NCBI GenBank assembly: GCA_951406725.2
Contig: OX597830.1
Coordinates: 22,010,001 to 22,074,000, forward strand
DNA from: Octopus vulgaris
Taxonomy: Eukaryota
Direction: 5' to 3'
DNA: 64,000 nt
The translations under genes and the position numbers were made by a program. Within the stretch, counting starts at the first letter, position 1; each line of letters starts with the position of its first letter. The notes under the pieces were generated by a model. The model was not told the origin of the DNA. It searched no databases and saw only the letters and a list, made by a program, of their open reading frames with translations. This document shows positions 32,150-60,634 of the stretch, one piece after another.

Positions 32150-32168
32150 AACTGATGAAATATTCGTT

Positions 32169-32900: not shown

Positions 32901-32911
32901 TTTAAGTTTAC

Positions 32912-33183
32912 CTGTCAGAGGCAGATTGAAAATATTTGGCGTAGTTATTGTTATTCCACTCCATATCGTTATATTTGTTGCTTCGGTAACCTTGGGTCGA
33001 GATACCCATATCATTTCCAGTGTTAGTCATCAGCACTGAATCTTCGAATGTCTCTCTCTTGGTCCTACAGTCAAGTTCACCTTTTGGTCCACATTCCACC
33101 GGTGGGTGTATGATACTCGCTTCACCCACATCGCCCGCCGGTTGGCAAGTATTTAGGTTCGGGCCCACGACACACGCAGCCAT
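32912..33183 (-). CDS. TEKT4: Tektin exon 1 (ATG)
   Basis: aaaATGG start; ...GISTQGYRSNKYNDMEWNNNNYAKYFQSASD; AG|GTAAAC donor, phase 2 matching exon 2. Confidence 0.88.
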
Positions 33184-33324
33184 TTTGAAGTTTTATCCTT
33201 TTCTGTTACGAATGTACTTATATGAAGTAAACGTAGAGAGGAGATGGGAGTTAAAAAGAGAGAAAGAAATGTATATAAAATAAAGAGAGGAGCAAAGTGA
33301 GAGAGCGATGTTTTCATCAGTAGT

Positions 33325-37550: not shown

Positions 37551-38302
37551 CTAGTTAAACAACCTGTTCTGACTCCCAACTGTACTTGATGGAAAGCCTT
37601 CATTTTGGTATCCTGTGTTGTAAGCACTGAAATAAGGCTGTTGCATTTGTCCATCATTACCACCACCATATGTATTCATCGTGATCCCATCCTGTGCCTG
37701 AGAATTGTCAAACATGTTAGTAGATGTCTGGTTGTACCCCATCCCTTCACTGTTAGTGGGTACCTGGTTGTACCCCATCCCTTCACTGTTAGTGGATCCC
37801 TGGTTGTACCCCATCCCTTCACTGTTAGTGGGTCCCTGGTTGTACCCCATCCCTTCACTGTTAGTGGATCCCTGGTTGTACCCCATCCCTTCACTGTTAG
37901 TGGGTCCCTGGTTGTACCCCATCCCTTCACTGTTAGTTGTTCCCTGGTTGTACCCCATCCCTTCACTGTTAGTAGGTCTCTGGTAGTACCCCATCCCTTC
38001 ACTGTTAGTAGGTCTCTGGTTGTACCCCATCCCGTCACTGTTAGTGGATCTCTGGTTGTACCTCTTCCCTTTACTGTAAGTGGGTCTCTGGTTGTACCCC
38101 TTCCCTTTACTGTTAGTTTTTCTACTACTGTCAACAAATGCTCCAGTAGCGTCACGCCCTGTTGAGTTCACGGGGTTACCAAACCACTGGTCATTGGGTT
38201 GGTTCATGCTACTGTTGCCAATGTCTCCATATGTGTGGGACCAGCTGTCCCCTTTCCTATCTGCACTGCTGGAATCCCAAGATCTCTGGTTAGATCCACC
38301 AC
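37551..38302 (-). CDS. SAFB-like gene, last exon (G/S/N/Q/Y-rich low-complexity tail)
   Basis: ccttttag acceptor, phase 1; GGSNQRSWDSS...QNRLFN*. Confidence 0.85.
37722..38117 (-). repeat. Coding minisatellite, 11 x 36 bp (TNSEGMGYNQGP)
   Basis: Units counted in ORF 37551..38354. Confidence 0.95.
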
Positions 38303-38572
38303 CTAAAAGGAAGACAGAGAAAAGGTGCACAAATATAAAAACTGAAGATTCCAATAAATTAATATTAAAACAGAATAATGAGATATGTAAAGAATAGGAT
38401 TCAAGGAAGAAAGGGATTGTATTGAAAGAGGGATTGCTTCAGAAGGCAGAGAAACAGTGAAAATACTATATTGGGAAATAGAGCGTACAAAATTTCATCT
38501 GTCGGTGAGTGAGTGAAATGGAGAGGGGGAGAGAGCTGGTCAAAAACATCGAGTAAAACAATAGAAACTTAC

Positions 38573-38700
38573 CATGAGAACTTCTCATTTGACTCATTCT
38601 GTTATAAGATGATACAGAATCTTGTTCTCGATTAGGGCCACTATATCTTCTTTCAGGTCCCCTACTTCGACCAATATCTCTTCTTGCATCAAAGCCTGTC
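38573..38700 (-). CDS. SAFB-like gene exon (R/G/S-rich)
   Basis: tttccag / GTAAGT; TGFDARRDIGRSRGPERRYSGPNREQDSVSSYNRMSQMRSSH; phases 2/1. Confidence 0.82.
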
Positions 38701-39088
38701 CTGGAAACAGAAGTAAATCTGACATAAAAAGAGCAAATTTACTTTGTTATAGAAGTGTTTAGAAATATACCTGCACAAAAGGCACTTTGATATTTTGACC
38801 TGGCTTAAACACATGGTTCTGTATAGGTCATCTTGTTAAAACAAGATTGACCTGTATAGAACCATGGGTATATGCCAATACTAACCTATATAGAGGATGT
38901 TGTTTAGACTAACACTCGCTTTTATGGTAGCTTGTTTAGCTCAACAGTGATCTGTAAAAAGGTAAGATCATCATCACTTAAAATCTGCTTCCCATACTGG
39001 CAGAAGATTGCATCAGGCTCTGCCATCTGTTTGGACTGGTTTCTAAGACTAAAAATTCAGATAAAAAAAAAAAAAAAAAGGAAATTAC

Positions 39089-39223
39089 CAGTTTTCATCT
39101 GTCCGAGACCAGTCATTGTATCTGCCTTGGAAATCTTGCGAAGGACCCATTTCCCAACTCCTCATTCCTCTTTCTTTCTGATCGGCCCGTCTTCCATAAT
39201 CTGTATTCTCATATTCATTATAG
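39089..39223 (-). CDS. SAFB-like gene, type-B duplicated exon (copy 2)
   Basis: ctgtcag / GTAATT; YNEYENTDYGRRADQKERGMRSWEMG...; 135 nt, phase 2-2. Confidence 0.8.
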
Positions 39224-40426
39224 CTGACAGAGAAAAAGAGAAATGACATAATATATATGTAACCATGTACCTCCTCTATAACAAAACACCCGTTTTTGCC
39301 TATCTGTTTCTCTGTCACACTCTAACCTTTCATCTGACACAAGATCACCTCCTCCAAAATTCCTTGTCTTGCAAGTTACTTGGTGACCCTGCCAGTGCTG
39401 GTGCCACATAAAAAGCATCCAGTTCACATTGTGAAGTGGTTGGCTTTTGGAAGGGCATCCAGCTATAAAAACCACACCAAGACTGACCTCACCTGTGCTG
39501 GGGTCATGTAAAAAGCACTCAGTCCACTCTGTGGGTCAGTTGGTGTTAGGAAGGACATCCACCTGTAAAAACCATGCCAAAACAGACACAGTAGCCTGGG
39601 GTAGTCTTCTACCTGGCTGGCTCCTGTCAAACCAGCCAACCCGCACCAGCATGGAAGGCAGACAATAATGATGATATATATCATAAACACAATCATTATC
39701 AATTTAACATCTTTTCCAGGTTTACATGGTCTGACGGAATTTATTGAGGTAGATTTTCTACAGCCAGATGCCCTTCCAACTGCCCCCCCCCCCTCACTTG
39801 CTTCCAGGTAAGGTTATATTTCCCCCCTAGCTGGACAAGTTTACACCTGCAACTGGAAATGATCGACACCACTTGTGTGATTGTGAGGCTTATTTACAAC
39901 TATCATGCAATGACAAGGAGACACAAACACACAACTATATACATATGACAGGCTTATTTCAATTCCTGTCTATCATATCCACTCACAAGGTTTTGGTCAG
40001 CCTGAGGCTATAGAAGATACCTGCCCAAGGTGCCACACAGTGGGACTGAACCTGAAAATATATGGTTATATCATCATTGTTTAATGCCTGTTTTCCATGC
40101 TGGCATGGGTTGGACAGTTTGACAGGAGCTGACCAGCTGCAGAGCTGTCCATACTCCAATTGTCTGTTTTGGCATGATTTCTACAGCTCAATGCCCTTCT
40201 TAATGCCAACCATGTTACAGTGTGCTGGATGCATTTTTATGTACCAGCAGCATGAGTGCATTTTACATGGCATCGGCATAAGTATACACACACACACACA
40301 CACACACAAGTGCAAGAGGTCAAAGGCTGAGAAAGGCAAAAAGAAAAAGAAAAACCTAATGAAAAACCACACAGTTCCAGTAAATATGAAGTCAGGAAGG
40401 AACTGTCTCCATCTTGCGAAACTTAC

Positions 40427-40558
40427 TATGATTCATTCTGGAATGGGGGTTCATATCTAGAAGTGTTGTTGTTATAACCACTCATCCTGGATCTTCTGGG
40501 TCCGTTCCAGGGTTCGTCCCCACGAGGTCTCTTCATAGAATGACTCATTTCCCCCATC
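40427..40558 (-). CDS. SAFB-like gene, type-A duplicated exon (copy 6)
   Basis: aaaatag / GTAAGT; MGEMSHSMKRPRGDEPWNGPRRSRMSGYNNNTSRYEPPFQNES; 132 nt, phase 2-2. Confidence 0.8.
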
Positions 40559-43315
40559 CTATTTTAAACAATAAACAGCAAAATAAAGTTAACAGAAGTA
40601 AACAACTATAGCACTGAATGCTAAGCAAATAGAGAATAAGATAGTGAATAGTCTTAACTCCAAACAAGTGCTTCCTATGTGGTTGTTCAAGCAACTAGAA
40701 ACAGCAGCCAAATCTTTAAATCCCTCTTTGCTGTCTTATAAACATAAAAAATAGATAATGTAGGTCTACATTATCTATTTTTATTAGTATTAGATAATGT
40801 AGACCTATATATTATATCTGAAAAATACATAGAATGATCATGGACGGAATACTTTTGATCAAAGGTCTGCTGTATCTGATCTGATTTAGTGCAGAACAAC
40901 ACCACCAGGGAGTTTGTAACCACAGAACAAAAACAACTGAGGCTGTTGTGTACTCTGTAGAGAAGCTGGTATATGCTCCAACAGTGATGTAAATAGAAGT
41001 TGTCGCTAACAAGAACTCTGACCTATTAGTGCACCTGCCAACATTTGGATCAACACTGACCTGTACAGAGCCAAAATCAAAGTTAAATATTATACATCAT
41101 TACTATTCTGGACCAGTCATCAGTTTGTTACTGATTTAACATCTCAGACAGGACTCTTCCACAAATACTTTATCATTTCTTATTTGTTATGTTCATCAAA
41201 GCAGCCTTCAACTTCCAGTTCTGCTTTCCCTACTCTCATGATGTCATTAATAATCTGTAACCAAATAGTCATTTTTTTTCTTTTATACTTAATGGGTCTG
41301 GAGCAAGTGGCAGGACCCATAGCTTTCACAGGCCTTCTTGACAGGTGAGACTGGTAACATCAACATTCTTCTTGAATATTGTTTCAAGTCAACATTTGTT
41401 GGAAAGATATGAGCAGTAAAGAAATTGCAGAATTTTCTGGGGGGGAAAAAAGATTGGTCATAGAAATCAATGAAGGACCTGGGGCAGGGGTGAATGAAAC
41501 AACATGTGTGATCAGATGAGAAGAGGTAAGTGGAATTGGAATGTCTGGAAGTGGGTGGCTTAAAACAACTATTTCCTGAGGAGCAGAGGCTATTATAGCA
41601 ACGGTAGGAGACAATGTGCTTGTGGACAAGGGGCTGGAACACATCTGTAACTTCATGCCAATCAATCGGCCTTTTCTGGATAGGGTTTCAGATGTTTGTG
41701 CAGATGTGGAATTTTTAGATAATTAGTTTTCTTTCTGTTACAAACCCATCTACTACTACTACTACTACTACACACACATCTACTGCTATCAGTTCTTCAC
41801 TATACTATAGACATTCCTTCCTCTCTGGACTTTGTACATCATCATCATCTTATCATTTAATGTCTGTTTTTCCATGCTGGCATGGGTTGGACAGTTTGAC
41901 AGGAGCTGGTAAAGCCCGGGAGGGGGGCACACCAGGCTCCTTTGTCTGTTCTGGCATGGTTTTTACAGCTGGATGCCCTTCCTAAAACTATTTTACAATG
42001 TACTGGGTGCTTTTTACATGGCATCAGTACAGGTATCAATTCTGCAGTGGTGGATGGGTCTTCTTGATTACAGCAAGATGCCGATATCTCAGTCCTTTGT
42101 CATATCCTTCATAAGGCTAAGTGTCTTGAGATTGGCTTTCAGTACTCCATCCCATGTTTTCCTGGGTCTCCCCCTTCTACAAGCCCCATCCACTTTAAGG
42201 GATTGGCATCCAATGACCAAACCAACACATCTTGTCTTGCACACTACATCTAATTCCTCTTATCTCAAACTTTTCTCACACTACATTAGCACTCCATTGC
42301 ACAGCCAGCAGAGCATAATAGCTTCATTTCTCTCTAGCCTTCACATGTTCTCTGCATTCAAGGCCCACATCTCACCACCATGTAGCATTGCTGTTCATAT
42401 ACATGCACCAGTTGTACAACTTCTCTAGACTTTTTAAATTAGTGTTTTACTGTGTTGTTTTTAAAACTTAACATTTTTTGTTACGTCAACATCTCTTGCC
42501 TTTAACGGTCCTGATTACTTCACTATTTCCTCTTCTCGCCTCAAGAAATGTTTTGATTAATATGTCTCTAAATCCCTGACTGTTCACTGCATCTTAAAGC
42601 CTTTATATCTTCCTTTTTCATATTGATTTGTGTCTGTAAGTTCTTTGATCTCAAAGTCTGAAACCACTAACCACTAGGCTTGAATGGGTTTGATAGAGTT
42701 TACTGGGGCAGATTTTCTACAGTTAGATGCCTTTCCTTTCACCAACCTTTGTTTCTAACCAACGTAACATTGCCCATGACAGACCATGTCTTCACAGGAT
42801 ATTGCCTAGCCTTCCTTCTGGCTCCCTGATACAATGCTTTGCTTCCACCGTTTTCCCAGTCCTTCCAAGCCTGTCTCTTTGCTCTTATAGCACTGTCCAC
42901 CTCCTTGTTCCACCACCAAGTCGCCCTCGGCCTAACTGAGACTTTGCATCAACCACAGATTTGGTCAGCAGTACCCAGTAAACAATATATACTATGTAGA
43001 TACGTAAGGGAAAAGTGTATCTGTTTATTCCACTGTTAGTTTATATATATACACGCACACACACAAACATACATACACGTGTGAGAGTAAGTATGTATAT
43101 ACACAAACATAATACATGCATATATGTGTGTGTGGGTGAGAGTGTGTACACACACAAATAGACATATAATGCAGATACTTATATAATTACACACAAGAAG
43201 ACAAAACTGAGAAAAGAAAAAGAAAAGGAGAAACTTTAATGTTGAACATCACAATTTCAATGAATAAGAAATCAATGAAGCCCTACACACAGGGTTTCCA
43301 GTACACACAGCTTAC

Positions 43316-43447
43316 CGAGATTCATTCTGGAATGGAAGATCAAATCTAGAAGCGTTGTTATAATTGCTCATGCTGGGTCGATTGGGTTCCTCGTGTTGTT
43401 TCCTTTGATTCAGAGGCATCTGTATGGAATGTACCAGTTCTCTCAGC
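43316..43447 (-). CDS. SAFB-like gene, type-A duplicated exon (copy 5)
   Basis: aaaatag / GTAAGC; LRELVHSIQMPLNQRKQHEEPNRPSMSNYNNASRFDLPFQNES; 132 nt. Confidence 0.75.
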
Positions 43448-44019
43448 CTATTTTAAAGAATAAGCAACAAATGAAGTTAACAGAAGTAAACAATTGCTGT
43501 ACTGAATGATAGCAGGTAAGGGAAAAGATAGTAAATAGCCTTAAATCTCAATAATACACAACTAAGCTAAGGAGCGTACTTCTAGGTGATTACTCAATGA
43601 AAATCAACAGCCAAATCTTTGACAAATCACTATTTATTGGCTTAAAATTTTAAATGGATGCAACAGATAATGTAGGCCTACATTATGTCTAAAAATAGAT
43701 GGAATGATCAAGACCGGAATACCTTTGATCAAAGGTCTGCTCAATTTGATGAAACCTAGGAGTAAACAACACAAGCTGTGGATTTAGAATCACAAAACAA
43801 GAACAATTAATGACTAGCATTGACCTCTACGAAAAGCTGGTATATGCATCAACACTGACCAAGACAGAGGCTGGTGCATGCACCAACACTGATCTATATG
43901 AAGAATATTGTTTACAACAAAACTCATCTATATATCAGCTCACGTTTAGATCAACATGGATTTTATATAGTTAAAATCAAAAGTAAAAGTTAAGACGTTT
44001 AAATAACAAGCAAAATTAC

Positions 44020-44385
44020 TGTTTAAGTTTTTCTTCAATTTGTGTTTCAACTTTCTTTTGAACATCTGGGAAAGGATCTGTTCTCTGCTTCTTCATTTGT
44101 TTTTCTTCAGGGACATCAGAATGGCTTCCACCTCCCGAAACTTCAGGGACATCAGATTGGCTTCCACCTCCCGAAACTTCAGGGACATCAGATTGGCTTC
44201 CACCTCCCAAAACTTCAGGGACATCAGATTGGCTTCCACCTCCCGAAACTTCAGGAACATCAGAATGGCTTCCATCTCCCGAAACTTCAGGGACATCAGA
44301 ATGGCTTCCACCTCCCAAAACTTTCCCACTCCTCTCATTATGCTGAACTTGTTTTCCATAATCTGTGTTCTTGTATTCATTAACA
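44020..44385 (-). CDS. SAFB-like gene, type-B duplicated exon (copy 1, repeat-expanded)
   Basis: ctcacag / GTAATT; VNEYKNTDYGKQ...(EVSGGGSQSDVP)x6...IEEKLK; 366 nt, phase 2-2. Confidence 0.75.
44105..44320 (-). repeat. Coding minisatellite, 6 x 36 bp (EVSGGGSQSDVP)
   Basis: Unit CTTCAGGGACATCAGA(A/T)TGGCTTCCACCTCCC(G/A)AAA on the plus strand. Confidence 0.95.
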
Positions 44386-44508
44386 CTGTGAGAAAAAGAG
44401 ATAAAAAATGATACACACACGCACTTGTAAGATGCCAACATTAAAAAAGGTGAAAGAAATTTTAATTTAGAACATCACATTTCCAGTAATCTCTATCACA
44501 CTGCTTAC

Positions 44509-44655
44509 CGAAACTGACTTTGTAATAGAAGTCCTAATGCAGCGAGTATAGGGGAATTTCTCATTAGCGATCCCATGGGTCCAGCCAAGAGGGCTTCAAT
44601 TTGGGGATTGCTTCCATCTTGAGGTTTTTGCATGGAACCGATTGTGTCTTTCAGC
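44509..44655 (-). CDS. SAFB-like gene, type-A duplicated exon (copy 4)
   Basis: aaaatag / GTAAGC; LKDTIGSMQKPQDGSNPQIEALLAGPMGSLMRNSPILAALGLLLQSQF; 147 nt. Confidence 0.72.
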
Positions 44656-45662
44656 CTATTTTAAATAGTAAACAACAAAATGACATTAACAAAAGTAAAC
44701 AACCCTCTACTGAATGATAAGCAGATAGATGATAAGATGATAGGCTTAACTCTGAACAATAAACAACTAGGACACCAGTTGTGCCAACAAGAGTGTCTTT
44801 ATGTGACAGCTAAGGCAACTAAAAAATGGCAACCAAATTTTTGTCAAATCATTCTTTGTTGCCATGAAAATTTAAATGGCAGTGCCCCAGCATGGCCACA
44901 GCTCATGAGCTGAAACTGGAATCAATCAATCAATCAATCAGATAATGTAAGCCTATATTATGTCTAAAAACAGATGGAATAATCAAGACTTAAATACCTC
45001 TGATCAAAGATCTGTTCAGTATGGTGAGACATAAAGGTATAACCACAAACAAGAACAATTAGTGACAGGTATGTACACTAGCACTTGTAAAAGGCCAAAG
45101 GCAAAAGTAATGTTAATTTAGAACACAGCAATTCTAGTACAGTAACCACTCGCCATATCATGGTTCATCTATCACACCCTCAGTACATCGTAGATTTTTC
45201 AGGCTAATATATGTAAATTTACATCATGGACTCCTCAGTATATTGTGGATTTCTGAGGCCAATAGATGTTTATATTTTTTTACATTTCAATTATTTCTGT
45301 AGTAAAATAAGCATTTTCATGCCTAAAATTCAATCAATAAAAATACAGCTCTTTCTGTACTGTATAACACATTAATTAAAATATATTAAAAGAAAATACG
45401 TAGTGTACCGTAGATGAGTAAACAAAGAATTGCACACACCGTATGGAAAACTAAAGCCAGGAGGCGAGTGTGTAGTGTTGTTTTGCATTTGTAATAAATA
45501 TATACAAATTATAAAAATAATAAAATATACAGTACATTACTGTTTCTATTTCTTGGACTTTCACCTATCGAGGGTTTTTTTCAAAAGCAACACTTGCAAT
45601 AGTCAAGGGATTACTGTAAAATGAAAGCAATGGTATATTGGTGTCCATCACACACAGCTTAC

Positions 45663-45803
45663 CAAGGTTGATTGTGGAATGGAAGTTCAAATAGAGAGGG
45701 GACATGGACATTGAACCTCCTATTCCTCTTTCTCTTTGATTGTGTGGGTCCATCTCGGTTACTTTGAAATTGAGATCTCTGCATGGAATGGCTTGCTTCC
45801 ATC
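45663..45803 (-). CDS. SAFB-like gene, type-A duplicated exon (copy 3)
   Basis: aaaacag / GTAAGC; MEASHSMQRSQFQSNRDGPTQSKRKRNRRFNVHVPSLFELPFHNQP; 141 nt. Confidence 0.72.
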
Positions 45804-46039
45804 CTGTTTTAAACAATAAACAGGAAAATGAAGTTAACAGAAATAAACAATTGCTGGATCGAATGATAAGCAGTGAGAGGAAAACATTAAATAACCTTAA
45901 CCCTAAACACCAACTGAATCAACACAAGTGCCTCCATGGTACTTGACAGACAAGAAACAGCAACCAAATCTTCTGAAAAATCATTTGCTAAAGAAAAAAA
46001 AATGGATTCACTGAATTGTCTCCATCACACACAACTTAC

Positions 46040-46186
46040 TGAGATTGATTTTGGGATGGAAGTTCAAATATAGACAGAATATTGGAATTTCTCTCCTTTG
46101 ATCCTGTGAATCCACTGGAGAACTCTCCCTTACATGGGTTGCCTCAATCAAGAGGCCTTTTCACAGAACATGTCATTTCTTCCAGC
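46040..46186 (-). pseudogene. Type-A duplicated exon (copy 2) with in-frame TGA: pseudo-exon or poison exon
   Basis: Intact aaaatag / GTAAGT sites, 147 nt; LEEMTCSVKRPLD*GNPCKGEF...IFELPSQNQS. TGA at 46144-46146. Confidence 0.7.
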
Positions 46187-46817
46187 CTATTTTAAACAAT
46201 AAACAGCGAAATGAAGATACTGCGCAGAATAAGCAGCCAGAGGATAAGATAGTAAATAACTTTTTACAGAAGGGTAAATGATCAGAGTACCAAGCAAGCC
46301 AACATGAATATAGTACTCAACATACTAGAAACAGCAGCTAAATCTTCCTACTCCCCACCCCAAAAAATGTAGTCGAGCCTGTGTGATAAGAAGTTAGCTT
46401 CCCAACCATATTGTTCCAAGTTCAGTCTCACTGCACAGCACCTTGGGAAAGTGTCTTCTACTGCAGCTTTGGGTCAACCAAAACCTTGCGAATGGATTTG
46501 GTAGATGGAAACTGAAAGAAGCCTGTCACTCTGGGTGTGTGTGTGCGCATGTATATATCCATCTATATGTTTGAGTCTTTGTGCTTATCCCCTACCACTG
46601 CTTGACAACCAGTGTTGATTTGCTTACTTCCCCATAACTTAGTGATTTGGCAAATAGAGATCGACAGAATAAGCACCAGGCTTTCATAAAAAACTTAGTA
46701 ACGGAGTCAAGTTGTTTGACTAAACGTTTCACAGCAGTACCCCAGCATAGCTATAGTACAATGACCGAAACAAGATGAAGAGTAAAAGATAGATTGTCTC
46801 TGTCATGCATGACTTAC

Positions 46818-46940
46818 CAGGGTTGATTTTGGAATGGAAATTGAAACATGGAGGGGGTATGGGAACTGTTCCTCCGTGATCCCTTATTCATATTTCTTGG
46901 ATCACCAGGATTTTCTATGGCATTTCTCATCTCATTCAGC
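46818..46940 (-). CDS. SAFB-like gene, type-A duplicated exon (copy 1)
   Basis: taaatag / GTAAGT; LNEMRNAIENPGDPRNMNKGSRRNSSHTPSMFQFPFQNQP; 123 nt. Confidence 0.75.
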
Positions 46941-47446
46941 CTATTTAAAACAACAAACAGAAAAATAAAGTAAACAACTGCTGCACTGAATGATAGAGGA
47001 AAAGATAGTAAATAGTCAAGACACCACCGAGACAAGTGGGGCATACATTCCCACCAGTGGGACCTGGGAAAATTGTGGTAGGGTGTGGGAGTTAACATTT
47101 TTTTTTTTTAGTGGGATATGTAATTTTGAAAATCTTTTTACAGCAAACAGACCACACCTATACTTAGCCTAGCCAAGTTAATCCCCCCAGCCAAGCATAC
47201 AGTATGAAGACTGTTTGCTACAGTATAGCACTATTCTAATGCCCCAGTGTGGATATTTCTTTAAGAAAAGTATATAATTATGAAAGGCGTGGCTGTGTGG
47301 TAAGTAGCTTGCTTCCCAATCACATGGTTCCAGGTTCAGTCCCATTGTGTGGCACCTTAGGCAAGTGTCTTCTACCATAGTATCAAGCTGTCCAAAAAGC
47401 CTTGAGTAGATTTGGTAGATGGAAACTGAAACAAGCCCATCATGTA

Positions 47447-47494
<48 letters not shown>

Positions 47495-48440
47495 AAAGAT
47501 AAAGTTGATTTTTTTTTTCCAACTACCAGGGGGACATATATTTTTCTGGAAAGTTATAGTAGGGCCTGGGAAAAAATAGGTTGGGAAAACTGCTCTATGG
47601 CATTCAACATACTAGCAACAGCAGCCAAATCTTCCTTTAGAAAGAAAAAGAGTTTTAAAAAATCGTTCCTCACCATCTCTCGAAAAAAGAAAAAAAAGAG
47701 AGCAAAAAATCAGATACATTGGACAACATAGTTCTCAAGTCTTAAAAATAGGTTGAACGATCACAGCTTTGACTATAGGTCTACACAATCTGGACTGATC
47801 AATAGTTGATTTATAGCCAGAGAATAAGACAATAAACAGCTCCAATATCAATACAATAGCTGATATACCAATGTAGATAATGGGATTTATTCTTTGCTAC
47901 TGAAAAACAAGAGACCTTCACAGTAAATAATTTCATTTTTCATAAAACAAGGTTGCTTTATAAATATGTTGCTGTCAATCCTGATTGAGTGGAATATGAA
48001 GAAAAATATTACAGCAGAAGTGTTAAGACCCGTCCCTCTGGTGGTGAAAAGCACTTCTGGCAGTGCCATGTGAAAGCACCCAGCACACACTATAAAGTGG
48101 TTAGTGTTAGAAAGGGCATCCAGCTGAGGAAACCATGCCAAATCAAACTGAAGTCTGGTGCAGCTCCCCAGCTTTGCTCAAATTATCCAACCCATGCCAG
48201 CATGGACAACAGATGTTAAAAGATGATGATGATGATGATGAACCACAATTTTATTTAGCTTCACGTATCTTCTCAAGCACAGCTAACTGCCAAAAGTCTT
48301 GGTTCCTTGTCAAGCAAAACACCAGAAATTTCAGCCCCCAAGGGGAATAAAATAAATTAGTCAAGTTATATAAGTGATGTCAAAGACAATGATAAAAAAA
48401 TTTAAGTCGACAGAGTGACAACACAATCTGTCTCACTCAC

Positions 48441-48536
48441 CGCAACACCTCTGTCCATCGAAAATTCAGTTCAAGAAGTTGTCTTCCTATTTCAAATTTT
48501 GATAGGTTCTGATTTTGTAGTTTCATTTTCTCCCAC
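48441..48536 (-). CDS. SAFB-like gene exon (helical region)
   Basis: ttttcag / GTGAGT; WEKMKLQNQNLSKFEIGRQLLELNFRWTEVL; 96 nt, phase 2-2. Confidence 0.72.
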
Positions 48537-49208
48537 CTGAAAAGTGTGAAATAACATAAATAAAGATATCAAAAATTTAAACAAAAAGAAAACGAAAATC
48601 ATAGCCTACACACACCAACCTGCAACTAATCTGACTAGTATTACTTTACAGAATATCAAAGAAACTTACATTGGAATCCCTGGGAAAATTAAGCATTTGT
48701 CCCAAGATCACTTTTCTAACCTTAAATATTTGAAATATTAGAAGCAGCTGCAGCTATCTAAACAAATAGGTGCAGGAGTGGCTGTGTGGTAAGTAGCTTG
48801 TTTACCAACCACATGGTTCCTGGTTCAGTCCCACTGCGTGGCACCTTGGTCAAGTGTCTTCTACTATAGCCTCAGGCCGACCAAAGCCTTGTGAGTGGAT
48901 TTGGTAGACGGAAACTGAAAGAAGCCTGTCATATATATGTATATATATATGTATGCGTGTGTGTGTTTGTCCTCCTAGCATTACTTGACAACCGATGCTG
49001 GTGTGTTTAGGTCCCCGTTACTTAGCGGTTCAGCAAAGAGACTTGACAGAATAAGTACTGGGTTTACAAAAGAATAAGTCGTGGGGTCGAGTTGCTCAAT
49101 TAAAGGCGGTGCTCCAGCATGGCTGCAGTCAAATGACTGAAACAAGTAAAAGAATAAAAGAGTAAACTCTTTAACCCTTTAGCATTCAGATTACTATCAA
49201 ATGTGGCT

Positions 49209-49533
49209 GAGACCCCCTTCGGTCATGACCGACCATGGGATTACACCTAGAAAGTTACCCTCCCAAGCACAAGTCAGGGCAGGATTGTTTATGGGAGACC
49301 AGCAGCCGCCCATGCATACTGGCCTCCCCTCTCCATGCCACCAGTGTTATCCAAGGGAAAGGCAAAGGCTGATACAGCTCGGCCCCTGTGACGTTGCAAC
49401 TCATTTCTACCGCTGAGTGAACAGGAGCAACATGAAATAAAGTGTCTTGCTCAAGAACACAACATGCAGCCCGGTCCAGGATTCAACCTCACAATCGTAA
49501 GCTTGACGCTCTAACCACTGAGCCATGCGCCTT
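49209..49533 (-). mobile_element. tRNA-derived SINE family B, inserted in a TTAA-type MITE starting at about 49171
   Basis: Matches 3184..3524. It interrupts TTAACCCTTTAGCATTCAGATTACT... Confidence 0.75.
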
Positions 49534-51486
49534 CACTTTCAAATGCAATGCTTATATAAATAAGCATCACGCTGTTTGGAATTAACCATGCATTATCTAA
49601 TAGCTTTGAATGATGTGATTATTTTAGAATGCCATTGTAGGATGAGTATGAAAGACTTAATCTGGTCAGTTTGAACAAAAGAAAAATGGCAAAAATATTT
49701 CAACCTGATATGGAAGGTTTTAATAAAGCGTTTAAACATAGACAGGATAAAGAACAGCTTCTTGACATAGGGTATTTTTGAGTTGTAAGGATAATATATA
49801 AACACATTTCATTTTTCAGAAAAGAGAAGTCACATTTGGACAGAGTAACAGTGTGCCAGACAAGAGACAAACATCACTGTGAGCTGGACAGAGACATTTA
49901 AGTATCAAGCTAACATTCACATAACACTAAATATGTATCATGTAGAGGTACAGTTTAGAGAGTCTGTGTGATTGTTTGACCTATCTTTTATCTTTTACTT
50001 GCATCAGTCATTAGACTGCAGTCATGCTGGGACACGAGCTTAAAGAATTTTAGTTGAATGAATCGCCCTCAGCACATATTTTTTTTTTAAAGCCTGGTAG
50101 TTATTCTATCAATCTCTTTTGCCAAACCACTAAGTTATGGGGACATGCACACACACCAACACACACACACACATATAAAAACGGGGGTTTTTTCAGTTTA
50201 CAAACACATATAACAACGGGGGTTTTTTCAGTTTATGTCTACCAAACCCTCCACTCACAAGGTCTTGGTCAGCCCAAGGTACCATACAGTAGGACTGAAC
50301 CCAGAATCATGTTGTTAAGAAGCAAGCTTCTTACCATACATCCACGCTTGTGCCTACAAGAAATCTTGAACATATAACATCGTCATTCTCTCATCTTAAA
50401 AAATATATGTATTGAAGAAGATAGTTCTAAAGATAGCCATAAAAAATGGGATGGTTACAGCTGGAATGTCTTCAATCATATGTCTGCATAATAAGATTTG
50501 ATCTGAGACTAAGCAACAACACAAACAACAGTTCACCACAAGAATCGAGAAACTGTATGTCTGACAATCATTTCATTAAATTTCCATGCTAAGGAATATA
50601 TCCTCTTTTCATCTCTATAAAGAGTACAACATTTTCAGTGATGCCCAACCAACTAATTGGATTTTTTCCTCTTGACTTAACTCCAGCTTTTGAAACAAAT
50701 TAAATTCCAAATTCATCATAAGCCAAATATGCTATTCAAAAGATTTTAAAATGATTTATAACTTAGTCAGAAAATGAAAAGCAGTACACAAAATGTGTTT
50801 TTTCAGTGTTTCCAATCCAAGATTGATTAGAAGAAGAGAAGAAGCTATCCATAGATTAAAGACCTAGTCTGAAAGCAGCCAAGGGCCAATGTGGTGTTAA
50901 ACCAGGTGACAGGAGTATTCTTTTACCAAAAACTGGAATAGCCCCCCAGATGAGGTTTAACATAGTTTGCATCTACCAAATTTCACTGAAAAAGCATTGG
51001 TCAATCTGGGCATATGATACAAGACACTTGTCCAATGTGCTGCACAGGAAAGCATGGTTGTGTGGTAAGAAGTCTGCTTCCCAACAACATGGCTCTGGGT
51101 TCAGTTCCACTGTGTGGCACTTTGGGCAAGTGTCTTCTACTATAGCCTTGGGCCGACCAAAGCCTCGAGTGGATTTGGTAGATGGAAACTGAAAGAACCT
51201 GCTGTATGTCTGTGTCTTTATGTTTATCTTCCACCACCACTGCATGACAACCGGTGTTGATGTGTTTACATCCCTGTGATGCAGTGGTTTGCCAAAGAGA
51301 GACCAATAGAGTAAGTACCAGTCTCTTTAAAAAAAAGTCCTGGGGTTGATTTGTTTGACTAAAACCCTTCAAGGCAGTGTCCCAGCATGGCCACAGTCAA
51401 ATGACGAAAACAAGTAAAAGAATAAAAGAATACAATGATGGAATCCAGCATTAAACAATTATAATTTCAGTGGAATTTCAACAAAC

Positions 51487-51581
51487 CTTAACTGTTCACC
51501 ATGTTGAAACAATCTGAAAGACTCCTCCTGTTTTTGAGCGAGTTCGAGTTTTCTCCACAGACTGTTTTGTCTCCATCGTTT
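51487..51581 (-). CDS. SAFB-like gene exon following the RRM
   Basis: atatcag acceptor; KRWRQNSLWRKLELAQKQEESFRLFQHGEQL. The AG|GTTTGT donor gives the phase needed by the next exon. Confidence 0.65.
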
Positions 51582-52292
51582 CTGATATAAAACAACATAA
51601 AATGTAGAACAGAAAACCACATAAAACTAACAAACCATATTAAAACAATCATCATCCTCATCATTCAACATCCACTTTTTTCCATGCACAGGTCAAAGAG
51701 AATTTCTTGAGGAAGATTTTCAACAGCTAGATGCTCTTCCTGTTGCCAATCCTCAAAAATTTTCAAGCAAGTTAATATTTTCTCAAAGCTATAGGGTTGG
51801 AAGTGATTGCGTCTTCTACTATAGCCCCAGGCAGCCTAAAACCTTGTTAGTGGATTTGGCAAACAGAAACTGAAATACGCCTATCGTGTGTGTGTGTATG
51901 TATGTATGTGTGCATGCAACTGTTTCTTTGCTTTAACCCTTTTGTTACTAACCTGGCCAAAACCGGCTCTGTGGTAAAATGTCTTGTTTTCATACATTTT
52001 GATTAGTGGATTTGGCAAACAGAAACTGAAATAAGCCTATCATGTGTGTGTGTGTATGTATGTATGTGTGCATGCATGCAACTGTTTCTTTGCTTTAACA
52101 TCATATGATAGTTATAAGAGGAACGTCACCATCATACAAGTTTTATCTTGTCTCCAACCTTCCGTGAAAACATGTCTAGTCACAAGGGTAACAACTGACT
52201 AATACCTATCTAAATAGCTGATCACGTCTATCTATATCTACTTTCTTAAATAGATAACCAGATATCTATTTACTTAAACAGTTGACAACATA

Positions 52293-53143
52293 CAGTGTCC
52301 AGGCTAAACTTGACCACTTTCTTTGTCCCCCCCCCTCCAAACTGCTTGATGTATCAGTGGACAGTCAACAGTCCACAAAGTTGGAGAGCATAACTATTAA
52401 AGCTGTAGTTGAGAAAAAGTTAGCTGACATGGAACACTGGAAACCATCTAAATATTGGAAAGAAAGAGTTGCCTGTATCATGATAATTCACACTGAGTAT
52501 CAAAATACTGACATGCTGCTCAATGCTCTGTGAATACTGTTTGATGTGACATGGACAGCTGCAATGGAGACTACAAAGTCATGGCCAGTTGGAAGGGACA
52601 CAGCATGCATTCTGACTGAATCCACAAGTCAGAATCCATCTCCACATCTTTGAACATCTCAATCCCTGGCTGAAAAGAGTTGATGCTAGAAGGCCATATG
52701 TGTGGTAGCAGGATTTGGTTCTTTGTCATATTTACAGAATGAGCTGGAAGTGGTTGTCACAGAATGCCTACAACTTCACCAGCTCCAATTTCTGGCCTCC
52801 TAATTAATTCCCCTGATCGTAATCCCATTGATTACTACATGTGGGGCACAGGTGAGAAAGACAACAGCTGCTCTATTTGAAACACCAAGACTGAGCTGGT
52901 AGCCAAGATCAGGGTGGTGTTCAAATATCTTCCCAGGAACACAGTGGAGAATGCATACACCAGGTTCTGAAGCTGTCTTGAGGCTGTTGTGGAAACTGAG
53001 AGCTGCTACCTTTAAACTGTTATCTCCCAGCCATAATCTGGTTTATATATATATTTTTTATTTTTTAAATATTTTAATTTTGAATGAGATGTTTTTTTTT
53101 TCTTTTTATGCAAACTGTCAAATTTAGCCTGAACACTCGGTGT
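52293..53143 (+). mobile_element. Internally deleted Tc1-like transposon
   Basis: TIRs CAGTGTCCAGGCTAAACTTGAC / GTCAAATTTAGCCTGAACACT. Frameshifted WPP.NSPDRNPIDYYMWG motif near 52790-52850. Confidence 0.75.
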
Positions 53144-53223
53144 ATAAACATCTACCCTCTTTAAGAATTAACCATGTCAAATTTAACCCAAATACCCAGT
53201 ATATAAACGCCTATCCTCTTTAA

Positions 53224-53668
53224 CCCTTTCGTTACCAACATGGCTGAAACCAGCTCTGGATCTGTAGAACAAATGTCTTGTTTTCATAAGTTTTGAATTA
53301 AAATCTTCCATGAAACCTTAGTTACAATTTAGGTTTCTAACACTAGCTTAACCCTTAGTGTTCACATTATTCTGCCAAAATTAATGCTTTTTTTTATCCA
53401 CATTGTTTTGAACTAATCATGCATTATCTTGTAGCTATGAGATTTTGATGAGGTAGCTGTTAATTTTTAAAACGATATTGTAGGGTTGGTGTGAGAGACC
53501 GGATCTGGCCAGTTTGAACATAAAACAGGCAGAATACTTTTGGCCGGATATGGCCGGTTTAAATGCTAAAGGGTTAATGATAACTAAGCTATTTTACTAA
53601 ATTTTCTGTTATATTTTAAATAATTGAAAGAAACACAGAGCATCTCGAAATAAATAGTAACGAAAAAG
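53224..53668. mobile_element. piggyBac-type MITE (TTAA TSD) with a second TTAA MITE nested at 53352..53573
   Basis: Outer element TTAA|CCCTTTCGTTAC...GTAACGAAAAAG|TTAA. Inner element TTAA|CCCTTAG...GCTAAAGGG|TTAA. Confidence 0.75.
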
Positions 53669-53911
53669 TTAAGAGTTAACCATGTCAAATTTAGCCTGAA
53701 CACCTGATATATAAATGTCTATTCTTTTCAAGAGTTCAACATTTATACTGCAATAACCTGATTAACTCAACTTGCTCCAAAATCTATATCTATTGGAAAC
53801 GATGACCATCAATATTCCAATAGTAAATAACAATAAAGCTCATCATATATACCTAATTCAGTAGCTGACCATCTGGTCTGAAGACAAACCAATGAAGAGA
53901 GGATAACTCAC

Positions 53912-54061
53912 CTTAAGAACTTTTATCTTATGGCCTTCAATTTTAGTTTGGTTCAAAAACTTGATACATTTTTCAGCCTCTTCAGGCTGAGACATTCCTA
54001 TGCAACCACGATACTGAACACCAGTTTTTCGTTTTTTTGATAATATTTTGGCACCCAAAAT
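53912..54061 (-). CDS. SAFB-like gene, RRM second half
   Basis: ataccag / GTGAGT; ILGAKILSKKRKTGVQYRGCIGMSQPEEAEKCIKFLNQTKIEGHKIKVLK; phase 0-0. Confidence 0.88.
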
Positions 54062-54984
54062 CTGGTATGAACAGACAAAAACAGTAGAAAATAGTTAAAC
54101 TTTAAACATGAAAAATTACATGTATGTATTCAATCCAAAAGTTATCAACGTCAATATCTTGAAAAAGGCAGCGAGCTGGCAGAATCGTTAGCACACTGGA
54201 CAAATTGCTTCACAGTATTTCATCCAGCTTTGTGTTCTAAGTTCAAATCCTGCCAAGGTCGACTCTGCCTTTCATCCTTTCAGAGTCAGTAAAATAATTA
54301 CCAGTCGAGCACTGGGGACAATGTAAATGACTTTACCTATTCCTCTGGAATTGCTGGCCTTGTGCCAAAATTTGAAATCAGTATCAATATATTAAATATT
54401 TTCAGGTGTTTTTTTACTGATTCAAAGGAAAGGGCAGTGCCCGTGGTTTTTACAGGTTCTCCAAGACTGGTAAGAAATATTAGAACTATTTCTTTTGAAC
54501 AATTGAAATTGATGGCTGCAATGAAGGAATTCCAGAAAACCAACATCCAAAGAGAAATGACTGGGTATAGTGGTTATTATGGGGCAAGGGGTGGGAGGAG
54601 AAGAGAAGTGAGGAAACAAAGAATGAGTGCCAAAGTAGCGGTGGCACAAGATCAGCCTTCTTTAAGAAACAGGATATGGGCACAGCCTTTTACTCCTGAC
54701 AAAACCATTAGAAAAAAATTTTTTAATGAAAAAACAAAAAATTCCTGTAAAGAATTTTACATTTCTTCAATTTAAGATATTTCCTGTTAATGTGCAATAA
54801 TCTTTGGATACTGTACATTATTTTGAGAGAGGAGAGGATGGGAAAGACATGTTTTTGGATCAAAGGTTAGTGTGTGTTGGCAAGTGACTTCATTAGTGAC
54901 TAATTAGTCAGAAGCATCATCCATATTTCCTATAATAGCTTTACAGATGTTGGTTTGAAATGAGTATGGAATGAGTGCAAGAGC

Positions 54985-55390
54985 CAAGACTGGATTAAGA
55001 CCCATAGAGGCCCTAAACACTTTGAAGATTTTCGTACCCCCATATATATGTAATTTAAGGTATAAATAATAATAAACCATAAAATAAATTTTTATTTTTC
55101 AAAAGGAAACAAAACTAATTTAATTTTGTATATTTCCACTTTATTTGTATTCGCAAAGTTTTTCCCTACTTTTTCAATTGCAAAGTTTTTGATCTGATTC
55201 TCAAAATTAATCTTACATAACACATCTGCTTCTATACTTAATAGAGAGATAAGGCATCCCAAATATTATTTTGGTAAGTTTAAAGTGGCTTCTTTTGTGT
55301 CATAAACCATTTAGCATTTCTGTGATAGCCCCTCCTTCCTTTGATGCCCTAAGCACGTGCTTATTTTGCTTAATGGTTAATCTAGCACTA
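54985..55390 (-). mobile_element. Non-autonomous hAT element with 8-bp TSD
   Basis: TSD GCAAGAGC (54977-54984, 55391-55398), imperfect TIRs, and a residual hAT C-terminal peptide LSIEADVLCKINFENQIKNFAIEKSR. Confidence 0.8.
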
Positions 55391-56274
55391 GCAAGAGCCA
55401 AACGGAGCTGAGAGTATTGAAGTCATTGAGGTCAAGGATTTTAGAGAAGAGTTAATTCATTAATAAAAACATTACATGAATGTGGAGGAAAGGATTTCAT
55501 TCAACATAACTGTGCCTTTATGGTTAAAGAGTTGTTGGTGAGTAGAGCAAGTTTGGAGAGTAATAAGAGAAGCAGATGTACTTAGAGAGTAGTAGATGAG
55601 GAGAGACTTAGAACTTAGATAACTGGAAGTGTTTCTGCTGAGAGAGAGAGAGATAGGGGGGGGGAACGACAAGGAGAGTGAATTCAACAGATGTACAAAT
55701 ATCACCTATCAGAGCAAAGTTTGGATATTGAAATGAAGATTGAGAGATCTGGGTCTTAGATAAGAACAGAGTGTAGCTAGCCTGTTAGTAAGAGCTGCTG
55801 TTTGCAATCAAATAGAGAACTGTTAAAGAAAATTGTTTATGAGATTTAATGTTATGTTGTGTAATCTAGAGAATATACTAAGTGTTGGAGTAACAGATCA
55901 TGATGAGAGGAAGCTTCATTGTATTTTCACAAGAGAGCAAACTACCAAAAACACTTGTAGTTCAGGATGAGTGATTGGTGTGATTTACCCACCACTGACA
56001 ACAAAAGACATGAGCAAAATTTAACATACTTGCCTAACTAAGCATATACAACAACATTGTCAAATGTCATTAAGAAAACACCTCCAGCATTGTGATTCCG
56101 TCTCTCTTCTTAGCAACTATCAGTAAGGCTTTCATAAATGGGAGATACATAACATATACACATACTAGGTTGCTGTTGGTATTTTGAATATAAGTACTAA
56201 TGAGTAATTACTATCATTAATTCAATAATAAAAGCATTATGTGAAAATGAAGAACAAAATTTCATTCAACATAC

Positions 56275-56366
56275 CGTGCCATACTGGCTACAAAGCCTTT
56301 TCAGTTCATCCAAACAGGTATTTGAAGGAAGACCTGTGATCCTCAAATTCCAACGGTGGTTGCGAG
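56275..56366 (-). CDS. SAFB-like gene, RRM first half
   Basis: ttaatag / GTATGT; RNHRWNLRITGLPSNTCLDELKRLCSQYGT; phases 1/0. Confidence 0.85.
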
Positions 56367-56434
56367 CTATTAAATGCAGGAAAACATTCAATAAATAAAT
56401 AAACAAATAAATAAAATACACACACACACACATA

Positions 56435-57020
56435 TAGGGTGTGCCTAAAGTCTGGACACATAGGCAAAATGTATATTTTCACAAAATACACATAAAATTT
56501 TCAGCAATATTCTATACAATTGGAAGATTAACAAATAACATCTTCAATATAATTTCCACCATTTCTGATGCAAAGGTTGATGCATTTTGCAAGATTTACG
56601 TGAACCCGATGTATTAACTTTACACTGCCATCAATTTGAGCACATTCACTCTTATATCAAGTGTGTGTTGCATCTGTGACTTTCAGTCAGTACGCTTTCT
56701 CCCTCAGCACACCCCAGAAAAAAACAAAAGAAGTCAAGGAGGCTAAGATCTGGTGAACAAGGAGATCACTCCACATGGCCACATCTTCCAATCCAGTTAG
56801 GGAAATCGTCATTCAGCCAATCTCTTACCACTGTGGTGAAATGGGCAGGGCTGTCATCTTGTTGGAACCACTCAAAGTTCTTCACCTAGCCTTTCAAGTT
56901 GGGGCATTAACTGGTTTCTCAACATGGTGAGATAAGTCTCATCTGTTACATGTTCACTGAAGAAAAAGTGGCCCCCACCAACATGAGATTTCCTAGTGTC
57001 CAGACTTTAGGGACACCCTA
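56435..57020 (-). mobile_element. Internally deleted Tc1/mariner element
   Basis: 25-bp TIRs TAGGGTGTGCCTAAAGTCTGGACAC / GTGTCCAGACTTTAGGGACACCCTA. Remnant FQQDD and SPDL..L..F.WG motifs. Confidence 0.8.
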
Positions 57021-57172
57021 TGTGTGTGTGTGTGTGTGTATTATACATATGAAATGAACCAATAAATATGAAACACAACTCTCCTGCTTATGTTCAAATT
57101 TCAAATATCTCAAACTGTTACAATAAGCTTAGAAAGAAAGAAAACATTCAAGTAAAAAATTAAAAAACTTAC

Positions 57173-57195
57173 GTCTGTCAACGTTCGACTGATCC
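57173..57195 (-). CDS. SAFB-like gene, 23-nt micro-exon
   Basis: ttgttgtag / GTAAGT. Converts phase 2 to phase 1 as the flanking exons require; encodes (R)DQSNVDR(P). Confidence 0.65.
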
Positions 57196-58317
57196 CTACA
57201 ACAATAAAACAAATGTTTAGAAATATCAAAAAATATAACGAATTCTGAATGCTAAGAGACAGAATAGAAATGTTATTTCAGCATTCAAATAAAATAAAAT
57301 TAGAAACAAATCTATATTATGCAACTTTACATCAAGTTTCTCAATCTAAACAACCAGGTAGAGATATATTGAAGTTAACAAATAAATAAGTAGTGTATAT
57401 ATATATATATATTTGAGTATGTATGCATGTACAACATGAAATGAAGTGTTTTGCTCTAGAACACAACGCGGTGCCCAGTTCAGGAATCGAAACCACAATC
57501 TTACAATCACAAGTCCAACATCCTAACCACTAAGCCACATGCTTCCACAGTGACACCTTGAGCAACTGTCCTCTACAATACCCCTGAGCTGACCAAAGCC
57601 TTGTGAGTGGGTTTAGTAGAAGGAAACCAAAGTAAGCCTGTTTGAATAAATATATATATATATATAGTAAATATATATATATATAGTAAATATATATATA
57701 TATATAGTAAAGTTTCTTTATTTATTGTATAGGCAGTAGTCTGAAGTGCTCATATAAAAGACCCAAGATGCAAAAGTATTAAAAAATGCCATGGGGAATT
57801 TCAGATAGGTTCAACAATTGAAATAAGCATATATTCTGTCATGGATCAATGAATATTAGTCTTAAAATTAAATATACCAATGTATCAGTCATATATATAT
57901 ATAAATATATATCTTTACTCTCTTTTACTTGTTTCAGGCATTTGACTGTGGCCATGCTGGAGCACCCCCTTTAGTCGAGTAAATCAACCCCAGTACTTAT
58001 TCTATCGATCTCTTTTGCTGAACGACTAAGTTACAATGACGTAAGCACACCAGCATCGGTTGTTAAGTGATATGGGGGGATAAACAGGCACACAAATGTG
58101 CACACACACACACATATATATACGACGGGCTTCTTTCAGTTTCCGTCTACCAAATCCACTCACAAGGCTTTGGTCAGCCTGAGGCTATAGTACACGACAC
58201 TTGCCCAAGGTGCCACACAGTGGGACTGAACTCGGAACCATGTGGTTGGTAAGTAAGCTACCTACCACACAGCCACTCCTACGTCTATGTATATGTGTGT
58301 ATATATATCTATGTATA

Positions 58318-58351
<34 letters not shown>

Positions 58352-58417
58352 CCGGAATAAACACAAAAATGTGAAACAAGGTGGAAAAAAGAGTACTCAA
58401 ATACCAGAAGTAGAATA

Positions 58418-58551
58418 ATATACTTTATTTAAAAGCAGCAGAAATTTAACAAAAGCTGTTACTCGGAGTTTCACATTCCCGTTCGTCGGACACAAACGAG
58501 AACGTGAAACTCCAAGTAACAGCTTTTGTTAAATTTCTACTGCTTTTAAAT

Positions 58552-58560
<9 letters not shown>
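58418..58560. repeat. Fold-back inverted repeat (~65-bp arms) with a hammerhead-like motif at 58457..58492 (-)
   Basis: The arms pair nearly perfectly around an ~11-nt loop. The minus strand reads TGT-CCGACGA-ACGGGAATGT-GAAA-CTCCGAG-TA-ACA. Confidence 0.8.
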
Positions 58561-58587
<27 letters not shown>

Positions 58588-60068
58588 CACACACACACAC
58601 ACATATATATATTTGTTCCTCCTAGTCTTGATATCGTGATAGTTGTAAATGAGAGTCCCTGTCACGCAAGCTGTCTCACTTGTTTTCAGTATTCTGCAAA
58701 ATCATGTATGGCTAGTGGGAAATTCCACTCCTTGCTTGAAAACAGGTGAGGGTTGTCAAGTGAAAGAAAATCCGGCCAGAGAAAACCTGCCTCAATAAAC
58801 TTCCTCCGACACATGCAAGCATGGAAAAGTGGACACTAAAACAATGATGATGATACAGGTTAGCTTAAGGTTAAAATAAAACACACATGTATATACCGAG
58901 AAATGCAAAGAGGCATGGCTCAGTGGTTAGGGTGTTGCACTCACGATTGCAAGATTGTGGGTTTAATTCCCAGACCAGGCATTGCGGTGTGTTGCTATGC
59001 GATCGTTTCAACATCTGTTGCACCTGTACAGGTAATGTTGATTTGATAGAGGCAGTGAGCTTATGTCTAAACAAACATTTGATCATCATCATCATCATTT
59101 AGCACCCGCTTTCCATGCTAGCATGGGTTGGACGGTTCAACTGGGGTCTGGGAAGCCAGAAGGCTGCACCAGGCCCAGTCTGATCTGGCAATGTTTCTAC
59201 GGCTGGATGCCCTTCCTAACGCCAACCACTCCATGAGTGTAGTGGGTGCTTTTTACGTGCCAGACGTAAAAAGCACCATGGTCGGATGGTGCTCTTTACG
59301 TGCCACCGACACGGGGGCCAGGCGAGGCTGGCAACGGCCACAATCAGATGGTGCTTTTTACATGCCACCAGCACAAATCATCTGTGTGGTTGTTTGGTAA
59401 GAAATTGTTGAACCCTCATACATCATCTAACGACAGGAGAGTCCATTATTAGTCATTTTTTTCTTTTACTTGTTTTAGTCATTTGACTGCAGCCATGCTG
59501 GAGCACCGCCTTTAATACATACACACACACATATGTATATGGAGAAAAAAGTCAAGATAGAAAATGCTAAAATAATTTTATAAAAAACATTTCAGTACCG
59601 GTTTCAGTCATTGAGACTTTTTCAACTTTAAGTATGGAAAACAGTTAACTTTTGGTAAAATTAAAAGAAAAGTTTTTTAAAAGAATATTTGCATAGTGTT
59701 CAAATACAAGTGGCATTTTCCTTGTTTCTCTCTCTCTCTTGTTTACTTTTGTGGGTTCAAGTTCAAACCCACAAGAGTAAACAAGAGAAACAAGTACCTC
59801 ATTTTCAACTGCCTATCACCTCAATACACTTGACTAATATAGGCACAATGAGTTGCTATCATCTATAGGCTGAAACAGCTGTAAGTGATTTTGATAATTT
59901 ATTTTCATGTTTTTAAATAACTGCTTGTATTCTTATCTTATATGCATTGAATAATATACTATATGTATGTATGTTATTATGGTTGTCGTTTTGATAAATA
60001 AATAAGTCAACATTTTAATGTTCTAAAGTTGATGAACCAACTAATGTGCTTCTCCATTTTCTTATTTG

Positions 60069-60100
<32 letters not shown>

Positions 60101-60105
60101 TAAAT

Positions 60106-60207
60106 TAAATTAAATTAGAGATAAAACCACTATTAGGCAAGTTGTCTAATAAAATGTCTATCACTGTTTGAGTTGCCTAATAGTGGTTTTATCTCTAATT
60201 TAATTTA
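60106..60207. repeat. Perfect 35-bp-arm inverted repeat
   Basis: TAAATTAAATTAGAGATAAAACCACTATTAGGCAA (60106-60140) and its reverse complement at 60173-60207. Confidence 0.9.
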
Positions 60208-60398
60208 TATTTATACTGTGAAATTTGATTTAATCCTAAATCTAATTTCCCCCTGTAAGTTTGGACATACTCCCTAATATTATTATTATATATATATATA
60301 TATATGTATGTATATATATATATATACGGAGAAGTAAGATCATTTAACTAATAACATCTTTAAATCAAAGCAGTAGGAAAGATGACAAGGAAACCAAC

Positions 60399-60634
60399 CT
60401 TTTTGGCCTAACATGACCTTTCTTCTTTGTTTGCTCTGTTTCCTTCTTAGCCTTTTCTTCAGTTATTTTTTCCGTTTCACTTCCGCCATCTGAATCTTCA
60501 CTTCCCGTTGTGCTCATTTCTTCATTATTCGTCTCTGATGCCACAAGATCAGCTTCTAGATCACTTTGTGTGTCATCAACATGTACAATCATTGAAACAT
60601 TTTTCTCACTCTGTTCAACGGGGGAAGTTTCCAT
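60399..60634 (-). CDS. SAFB-like gene, first coding exon (exon itself probably starts at 60827)
   Basis: ttttccag acceptor at 60829-60828. First ATG (AACATGG) follows in-frame stops. METSPVEQ...MIVHVDDTQSDLEADL...KKKGHVRPK; AG|GTTGGT donor. Confidence 0.75.

Follow-up and report, generated by a model that had tools for sequence, protein, structure and literature searches.

Duplicated symmetric exons in a diverged SAFB-like gene of Octopus vulgaris appear to be spliced mostly in series

A stretch of 64,000 nucleotides from the genome of Octopus vulgaris (GenBank assembly GCA_951406725.2, contig OX597830.1, positions 22,010,001 to 22,074,000; hereafter the window) carries a SAFB-like gene, here called g1, in which one exon type (A) is present six times and a second (B) twice. 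An initial annotation of the DNA had proposed that these exons form a mutually exclusive or cassette system that produces combinatorial isoforms. Does the array choose among its copies, or are they joined one after another? We favor the second answer, with a probability of about 0.8: five of the six A copies and both B copies are spliced in series, A6 is optional and A2 is skipped, and the array arose by internal duplication and only lengthens a tail of predicted disorder. Exons are named in transcript order (A1, A2, A3, A4, B1, A5, A6, B2), and positions are those of the window, with the gene on its minus strand, unless the prefix G000:C17 marks them as positions on the contig.

All eight exons were found where the initial annotation had placed them, on the minus strand, each with an AG acceptor, a GT donor, a length that is a multiple of 3 and phase 2-2 (Table 1). 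Seven of them are open coding exons as proposed; A2 is not, because its codon 14 (46146-46144) is a TGA in frame. The peptide signatures ascribed to the A exons proved looser than described: the end motif F-x-L-P-F-Q-N-Q/E is exact in one of the six copies (A5), can be matched loosely in five of six and is missing from A4, and the S-M start occurs in three. The six copies are homologous at the DNA level (repeat families D3, D4 and D9), and profile searches with protein and DNA across 464 kb recovered exactly six A copies in g1 and no hidden seventh. Phase 2-2 is not peculiar to the array, as it is also found in the preceding exon U0 and in the single A exons of sibling SAFB-like genes. Two regions of the gene additionally encode 36-nt tandem repeats (44105-44323 in B1 and 37643-38189 in the last exon), whose copy number differs between annotated isoforms; the B1 repeat is missing from Octopus bimaculoides.

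Table 1. Positions of the exon array, its host gene and the surrounding gene cluster (window positions unless marked G000:C17).
Feature	Position	Strand	Remarks
U0	48441..48536	-	phase 2-2; last exon of the coiled-coil region, directly before the array
A1	46818..46940	-	123 nt; included A copy
A2	46040..46186	-	147 nt; skipped; a dead copy that may rarely act as poison exon
A3	45663..45803	-	141 nt; included A copy
A4	44509..44655	-	147 nt; included A copy, the furthest diverged
B1	44020..44385	-	366 nt; included B copy with internal repeat
A5	43316..43447	-	132 nt; included A copy
A6	40427..40558	-	132 nt; cassette; nearest copy to the siblings' A exon (mean peptide identity 0.55)
B2	39089..39223	-	135 nt; included B copy
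Conserved 3' splice region (A6 as example)	40559..40660	-	~100 nt; upstream of every A copy
g1, SAP-less SAFB-like gene	37551..60634 (coding span)	-	915 aa with A6; RRM in exons 56275-56366 and 53912-54061
SAFB-like cluster g0 to g7	G000:C17, about 21.949-22.312 Mb	five -, then three +	eight genes in ~365 kb (L059-L063, the window, L011-L034)

The use of these exons was assessed from 11 annotated isoforms (five from O. vulgaris, five from Octopus sinensis and one from O. bimaculoides) and from spliced contigs of four among 24 sequencing runs (X1, X5, X6 and X7), one from each of four studies. The RNA nature of these runs is presumed, and their joints coincide with predicted splice sites. Almost none of the words searched for occurred in four of the 24 runs, which carries no evidential weight. 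A1, A3, A4, B1, A5 and B2 follow each other in all 11 isoforms, A6 is present in seven and A2 in none, and the exon order of the O. bimaculoides isoform is identical. Among the contigs, the joints E5 to U0, U0 to A1, A1 to A3, A3 to A4 and B1 to A5 occur in all four runs and A4 to B1 in three. Joints that include A6 (A5 to A6 to B2) come from X1, X6 and X7, and the joint that skips it (A5 to B2) from X1, X5 and X7, at contig depths of 132 versus 101 in X1 and 124 versus 122 in X7. A6 is thus a genuine cassette exon, with both kinds of joint present, the frame kept by either and skipping annotated in two species. None of the other exons behaves in this way. A2 is bypassed in all four runs through the A1 to A3 joint, and no joint into or out of it is among those listed for these runs; it is covered solely by unspliced contigs of low depth, in which the stop is unchanged.

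Two outcomes had been named in the initial annotation as refuting its proposal, namely that transcripts run from U0 (48441) straight to A6 and that every exon is always included. No U0 to A6 joint is among the listed joints, and constant inclusion holds for five of the exons from A1 through A5 (all but A2), with A6 optional. Among proteins of 437 to 2000 aa, only two clusters were recovered for this gene, and therefore no separate cluster of short, exon-skipping isoforms was seen. These data support an output of about two isoforms, with and without A6, and no combinatorial set. As a separate observation, the intron between A5 and A6 (40559-43315) has an unspliced contig depth of ~5 to 18 in all four runs, higher than most other array introns, and splicing beside the cassette is possibly slow.

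The initial annotation had also drawn attention to intron sequence shared upstream of the A exons and better conserved than the peptides. Repeat families D4 and D9 confirm this sharing, and the ranking holds as well: over the 15 pairs of copies, mean identity is 0.775 upstream, 0.645 in exon DNA, 0.594 downstream and 0.33 in peptide, and shuffling gives baselines of 0.59 and 0.55. Summed over the six copies, branch length is 1.05 (0.89-1.32) for the upstream ~100 bp, 2.05 for codon positions 1 and 2 and 2.04 (1.72-2.76) for position 3. The upstream sequence therefore evolves at roughly half the rate of third positions in the exons, although this twofold difference is approximate because gap trimming and T-rich composition bias the upstream value low. 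Since the same element also stands before the single A exon of the sibling genes g3, g5, g6 and g7, we infer that it is an inherited 3' splice region.

In a mutually exclusive array, of which Dscam is an example, the conserved intron would instead act as a selector element and the A copies would be chosen tissue by tissue. The tandem arrangement of homologous exons with equal phase and comparable length, the slowly changing upstream intron and the alternative use of A6 all fit such a system. We nevertheless regard it as highly improbable for g1, because four studies yield serial joints and each of the 11 isoforms carries four or five A copies together, and because the upstream element also precedes the lone A exon of sibling genes. 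The mechanics are likewise unfavorable: the array introns, at 123 to 2757 nt, are too long for steric exclusion, and the inclusion of two frame-symmetric exons gives no frameshift. No common docking site was found when the six upstream regions were compared with three introns, as only three of 18 pairings beat all eight shuffles (~2 expected) and their positions were scattered.

Serial splicing leaves A2 and A6 to be explained. Among the A copies, these two alone carry an A where the others have G at donor position -1, and it is plausible from the sequence that this base contributes in part to their skipping. A2 might alternatively serve as a regulated poison exon, whose inclusion would introduce a premature stop and lead to nonsense-mediated decay, thereby tuning the level of the gene. 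Its splice sites are intact (AG, GTAAGT), its stop lies early in the exon, and a low-depth X1 contig with the stop unchanged ends at 46041, beside the donor. That same contig, however, is unspliced across the acceptor, and A2 is absent from the listed joints as described above. Moreover, A2 carries the most decayed upstream element, with an upstream-intron branch (0.26) longer than those of the other five copies and a deletion in the shared element, and its ratio of nonsynonymous to synonymous change (dN/dS, omega) is 0.84, as expected in decay. A role as a poison exon is improbable on this evidence.

The A exons had further been described as fast-evolving, and this description is supported. 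A branch model gives an omega of 0.98 for the six A copies versus 0.30 for the A exons of the siblings (p=0.0003), and the data for the copies are compatible with omega=1 (p=0.93). When the copies are divided, the point estimates of omega are 0.36 for A6, 0.84 for A2 and 1.27 for A1, A3, A4, A5 and the inner branches. A neutral exon at the divergence of the A copies would have a chance of ~0.3 of remaining free of stops; five of the six are open, and the length differences among them are multiples of 3 throughout. Selection appears to maintain an open frame and working 3' splice regions, with amino acids hardly constrained. The relaxation looks gene-wide, because identity between g1 orthologs is only 80.5% (659/819), versus 93.7% and 92.5-93.1% for two siblings, and because the branch of the g1 RRM exon has an omega of 1.54 that is indistinguishable from 1 (p=0.58).

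Positive selection would be compatible with the same splice pattern. In that case, the A copies and g1 as a whole would be diversifying because the gene is a specialized SAFB paralog engaged in conflict, for example in the control of transposon RNA. The point estimates of 1.27 and 1.54 lean in this direction, as does the gap in ortholog identity from the two siblings (92.5-93.7%), and PMC10901741 describes the suppression of L1 and LTR transcripts by SAFB proteins in human, mouse and fly. Against this stand the two tests, neither of which rejects omega=1, and the loss of the SAP domain and of RRM aromatics (see below), which is equally compatible with relaxed constraint. We consider positive selection unlikely but conceivable, and return to drift of a serially spliced tail as the preferred reading.

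What protein does the array extend? A search with the last exon of g1 returned an O. vulgaris protein of 915 aa, which is annotated as scaffold attachment factor B1, and its ortholog of 834 aa from O. bimaculoides, and the exons in the window reproduce the 915-aa protein (P0001) letter for letter. Pfam finds an RRM only (PF00076, E=1.2e-8) and no SAP domain; likewise, an SAP exon was found for each of g2 to g7 and none for g1. The RRM aligns with SAFB RRMs, but three aromatic residues are replaced (W>R, Y>R and F>C) at what we take to be the RNP positions for stacking of RNA bases. In a fold model, confidence is high across the RRM (residues 92-167) and moderate in a helix (174-240), and the predicted local distance difference test score (pLDDT) is <50 across nearly all of residues 241-915. 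The predicted helix is encoded by E5 and U0, is homologous to the product of the sibling U exons, and is shorter and less ER-rich than theirs. By descent g1 is a SAFB gene, given its exon-by-exon homology and its tandem position beside canonical SAFB genes, and it falls outside the domain definition of the family in lacking SAP. No orthologs were found outside the three Octopus species. One protein, P0138, is a 77-aa RRM fragment, 82% identical to g1, without A exons. Solved structures gave generic RRMs only (10 sequences), a result that does not draw on a fold search.

Of the eight genes in a tandem cluster, g1 has diverged furthest. Six of these (g2 to g7) lie within the adjoining 400 kb, and the eighth (g0) lies ~40 kb to the left as an older, 59% identical copy. 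Diverged RRMs are found in g1 and its near neighbors g2 and g6. Each of g2 to g7 has a single A exon, and g0 gives one weak match (E=0.017). The full-length cephalopod-type SAFB proteins that were retrieved have one A-like segment, and a stretch that matches it, RRPY...W.E.KR, occurs in vertebrate SAFBs. Two copies of exon U occur in g3, g6 and g7, and g7 yielded no B exon. Phase 2-2 is ancestral for the U, A and B exons, which are therefore free to duplicate or be lost. The g1 array is older than the split from O. bimaculoides because that species has the same exon order; PMC10925132 places the divergence of O. bimaculoides from O. sinensis at 13-34 million years. We claim no order of duplications because the tree of the A copies is poorly resolved, with one of nine inner branches well supported. 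A link of the locus to the Z chromosome was also considered and dropped, as the contig number, 17, is no evidence for it and SAFB is not mentioned in the parts of PMC10925132 consulted.

Several observations concern the cluster as a whole. The RRM exons of g3, g4, g5 and g7 (G000:C17 22131683, 22164921, 22228856 and 22300792) differ at 0 to 3 of 150 bases, while 28-49% of synonymous sites differ among their A exons. Because the RRM exons are near-identical and the A exons strongly diverged, this pattern suggests that gene conversion may keep the RRMs uniform while the tails diverge. In two annotated proteins, P0018 and P0019, the N-terminal portion of g5 is followed by tail exons from another gene, g6 in O. 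sinensis or g7 in O. vulgaris; splicing may read through from one tandem gene into the next, or the mapping may be at fault. The g7 SAP exon (G000:C17 22285057-22285192) matches in two reading frames, and g7-like models of O. sinensis and O. bimaculoides lack SAP. In g0 (G000:C17 21974583-21982822), the acidic exon preceding the RRM is duplicated, and protein P0012 has two tandem RRMs, so internal duplication is recurrent in the SAFB-like family. Between g0 and g1, on the minus strand at 16711-33192, lie coding exons for coiled coils of a different gene, which presumably resembles tektin.

A broader proposal would tie these features together. From a suppressor of transposon RNA that is present once in other invertebrates, the octopus SAFB genes would have grown into a tandem cluster of eight, with tail modules swapped through gain and loss of the phase 2-2 exons U, A and B, and g1, with no SAP and a rewired RRM, would be a positively selected specialist or decoy against transposon RNAs, tuned by A6. 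We think this rather doubtful as a whole. In the mechanism that we prefer, ancestrally symmetric exons would have duplicated repeatedly inside g1, a paralog freed from the ancestral constraint of DNA and RNA binding, and the duplications would have extended a tail predicted to be disordered. A6 would then have turned optional and A2 would have died. The resulting protein, without SAP and the three RRM aromatics, may function as a scaffold or modulator that has diverged from SAFB, and not as a canonical binder of DNA or RNA.

Some points weigh against this account. The six A copies form no supported clade in a free tree, and a single clade is neither rejected nor shown by the approximately unbiased test (p=0.226). 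Contigs lose rare variants, their RNA status is presumed and the listed joints exclude 78 weaker ones, so that rare or tissue-restricted skipping is possible, and the annotated isoforms are gene models that depend on such RNA data. The estimates of omega come from only 46 codon columns, and the value of 1.27 for the A1, A3, A4 and A5 class leaves room for some positive selection. The low pLDDT may also stem from a shallow alignment of 13 sequences. Finally, B1 and the A exon of g6 are included despite an A at donor position -1, which weakens the donor argument.

The exon array itself is of minor import, as it introduces no new isoform-generating system and public gene models already contain the exons that are included. 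As a natural example it is clean: splice signals and frame are under selection while amino acids drift. The cluster of eight SAFB genes, with the RRM-diverged g1, g2 and g6, offers a lead on how octopuses handle transposon-rich introns. We did not find this cluster, or related work on exon duplication in octopus, in the open-access literature, and supplements to cephalopod genome papers could list such an expansion.

Among known systems, the closest counterpart is the association of symmetric exons, internal tandem duplication and disorder that PMC3632108 describes in human genes. The array in g1 shares its features: phase-symmetric exons lie in tandem within one gene, copies are included together, one is alternatively spliced, and the product has low predicted order (from the shallow alignment). 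Unlike the human genes treated there, g1 belongs to a lineage-specific tandem cluster of paralogs, evolves with an omega near 1 and has a dead copy among its exons. PMC6071210 presents mutually exclusive arrays, which have selector and docking sites and include one single exon. Such arrays resemble g1 in their tandem homologous exons of one phase and in common upstream intron sequence, whereas g1 includes four or five A copies together and showed no common docking site in the three introns scanned. Compared with the SAFB family as outlined in PMC10901741 (SAFB1, SAFB2, SLTM and fly Saf-B), g1 retains a SAFB-derived RRM, a helix region after it and exon A as the segment that follows the ER-rich coil. 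It differs in lacking SAP, in its shortened ER-rich region and in carrying exon A six times, and its RRM is much diverged, whereas in the RRM exons of the siblings identity to vertebrate ones reaches 90%. The same 2024 article states that only one SAFB orthologue is present in invertebrates, in contrast to the eight loci in this genome; on that statement, the eight-gene cluster is more unusual than the exon array.

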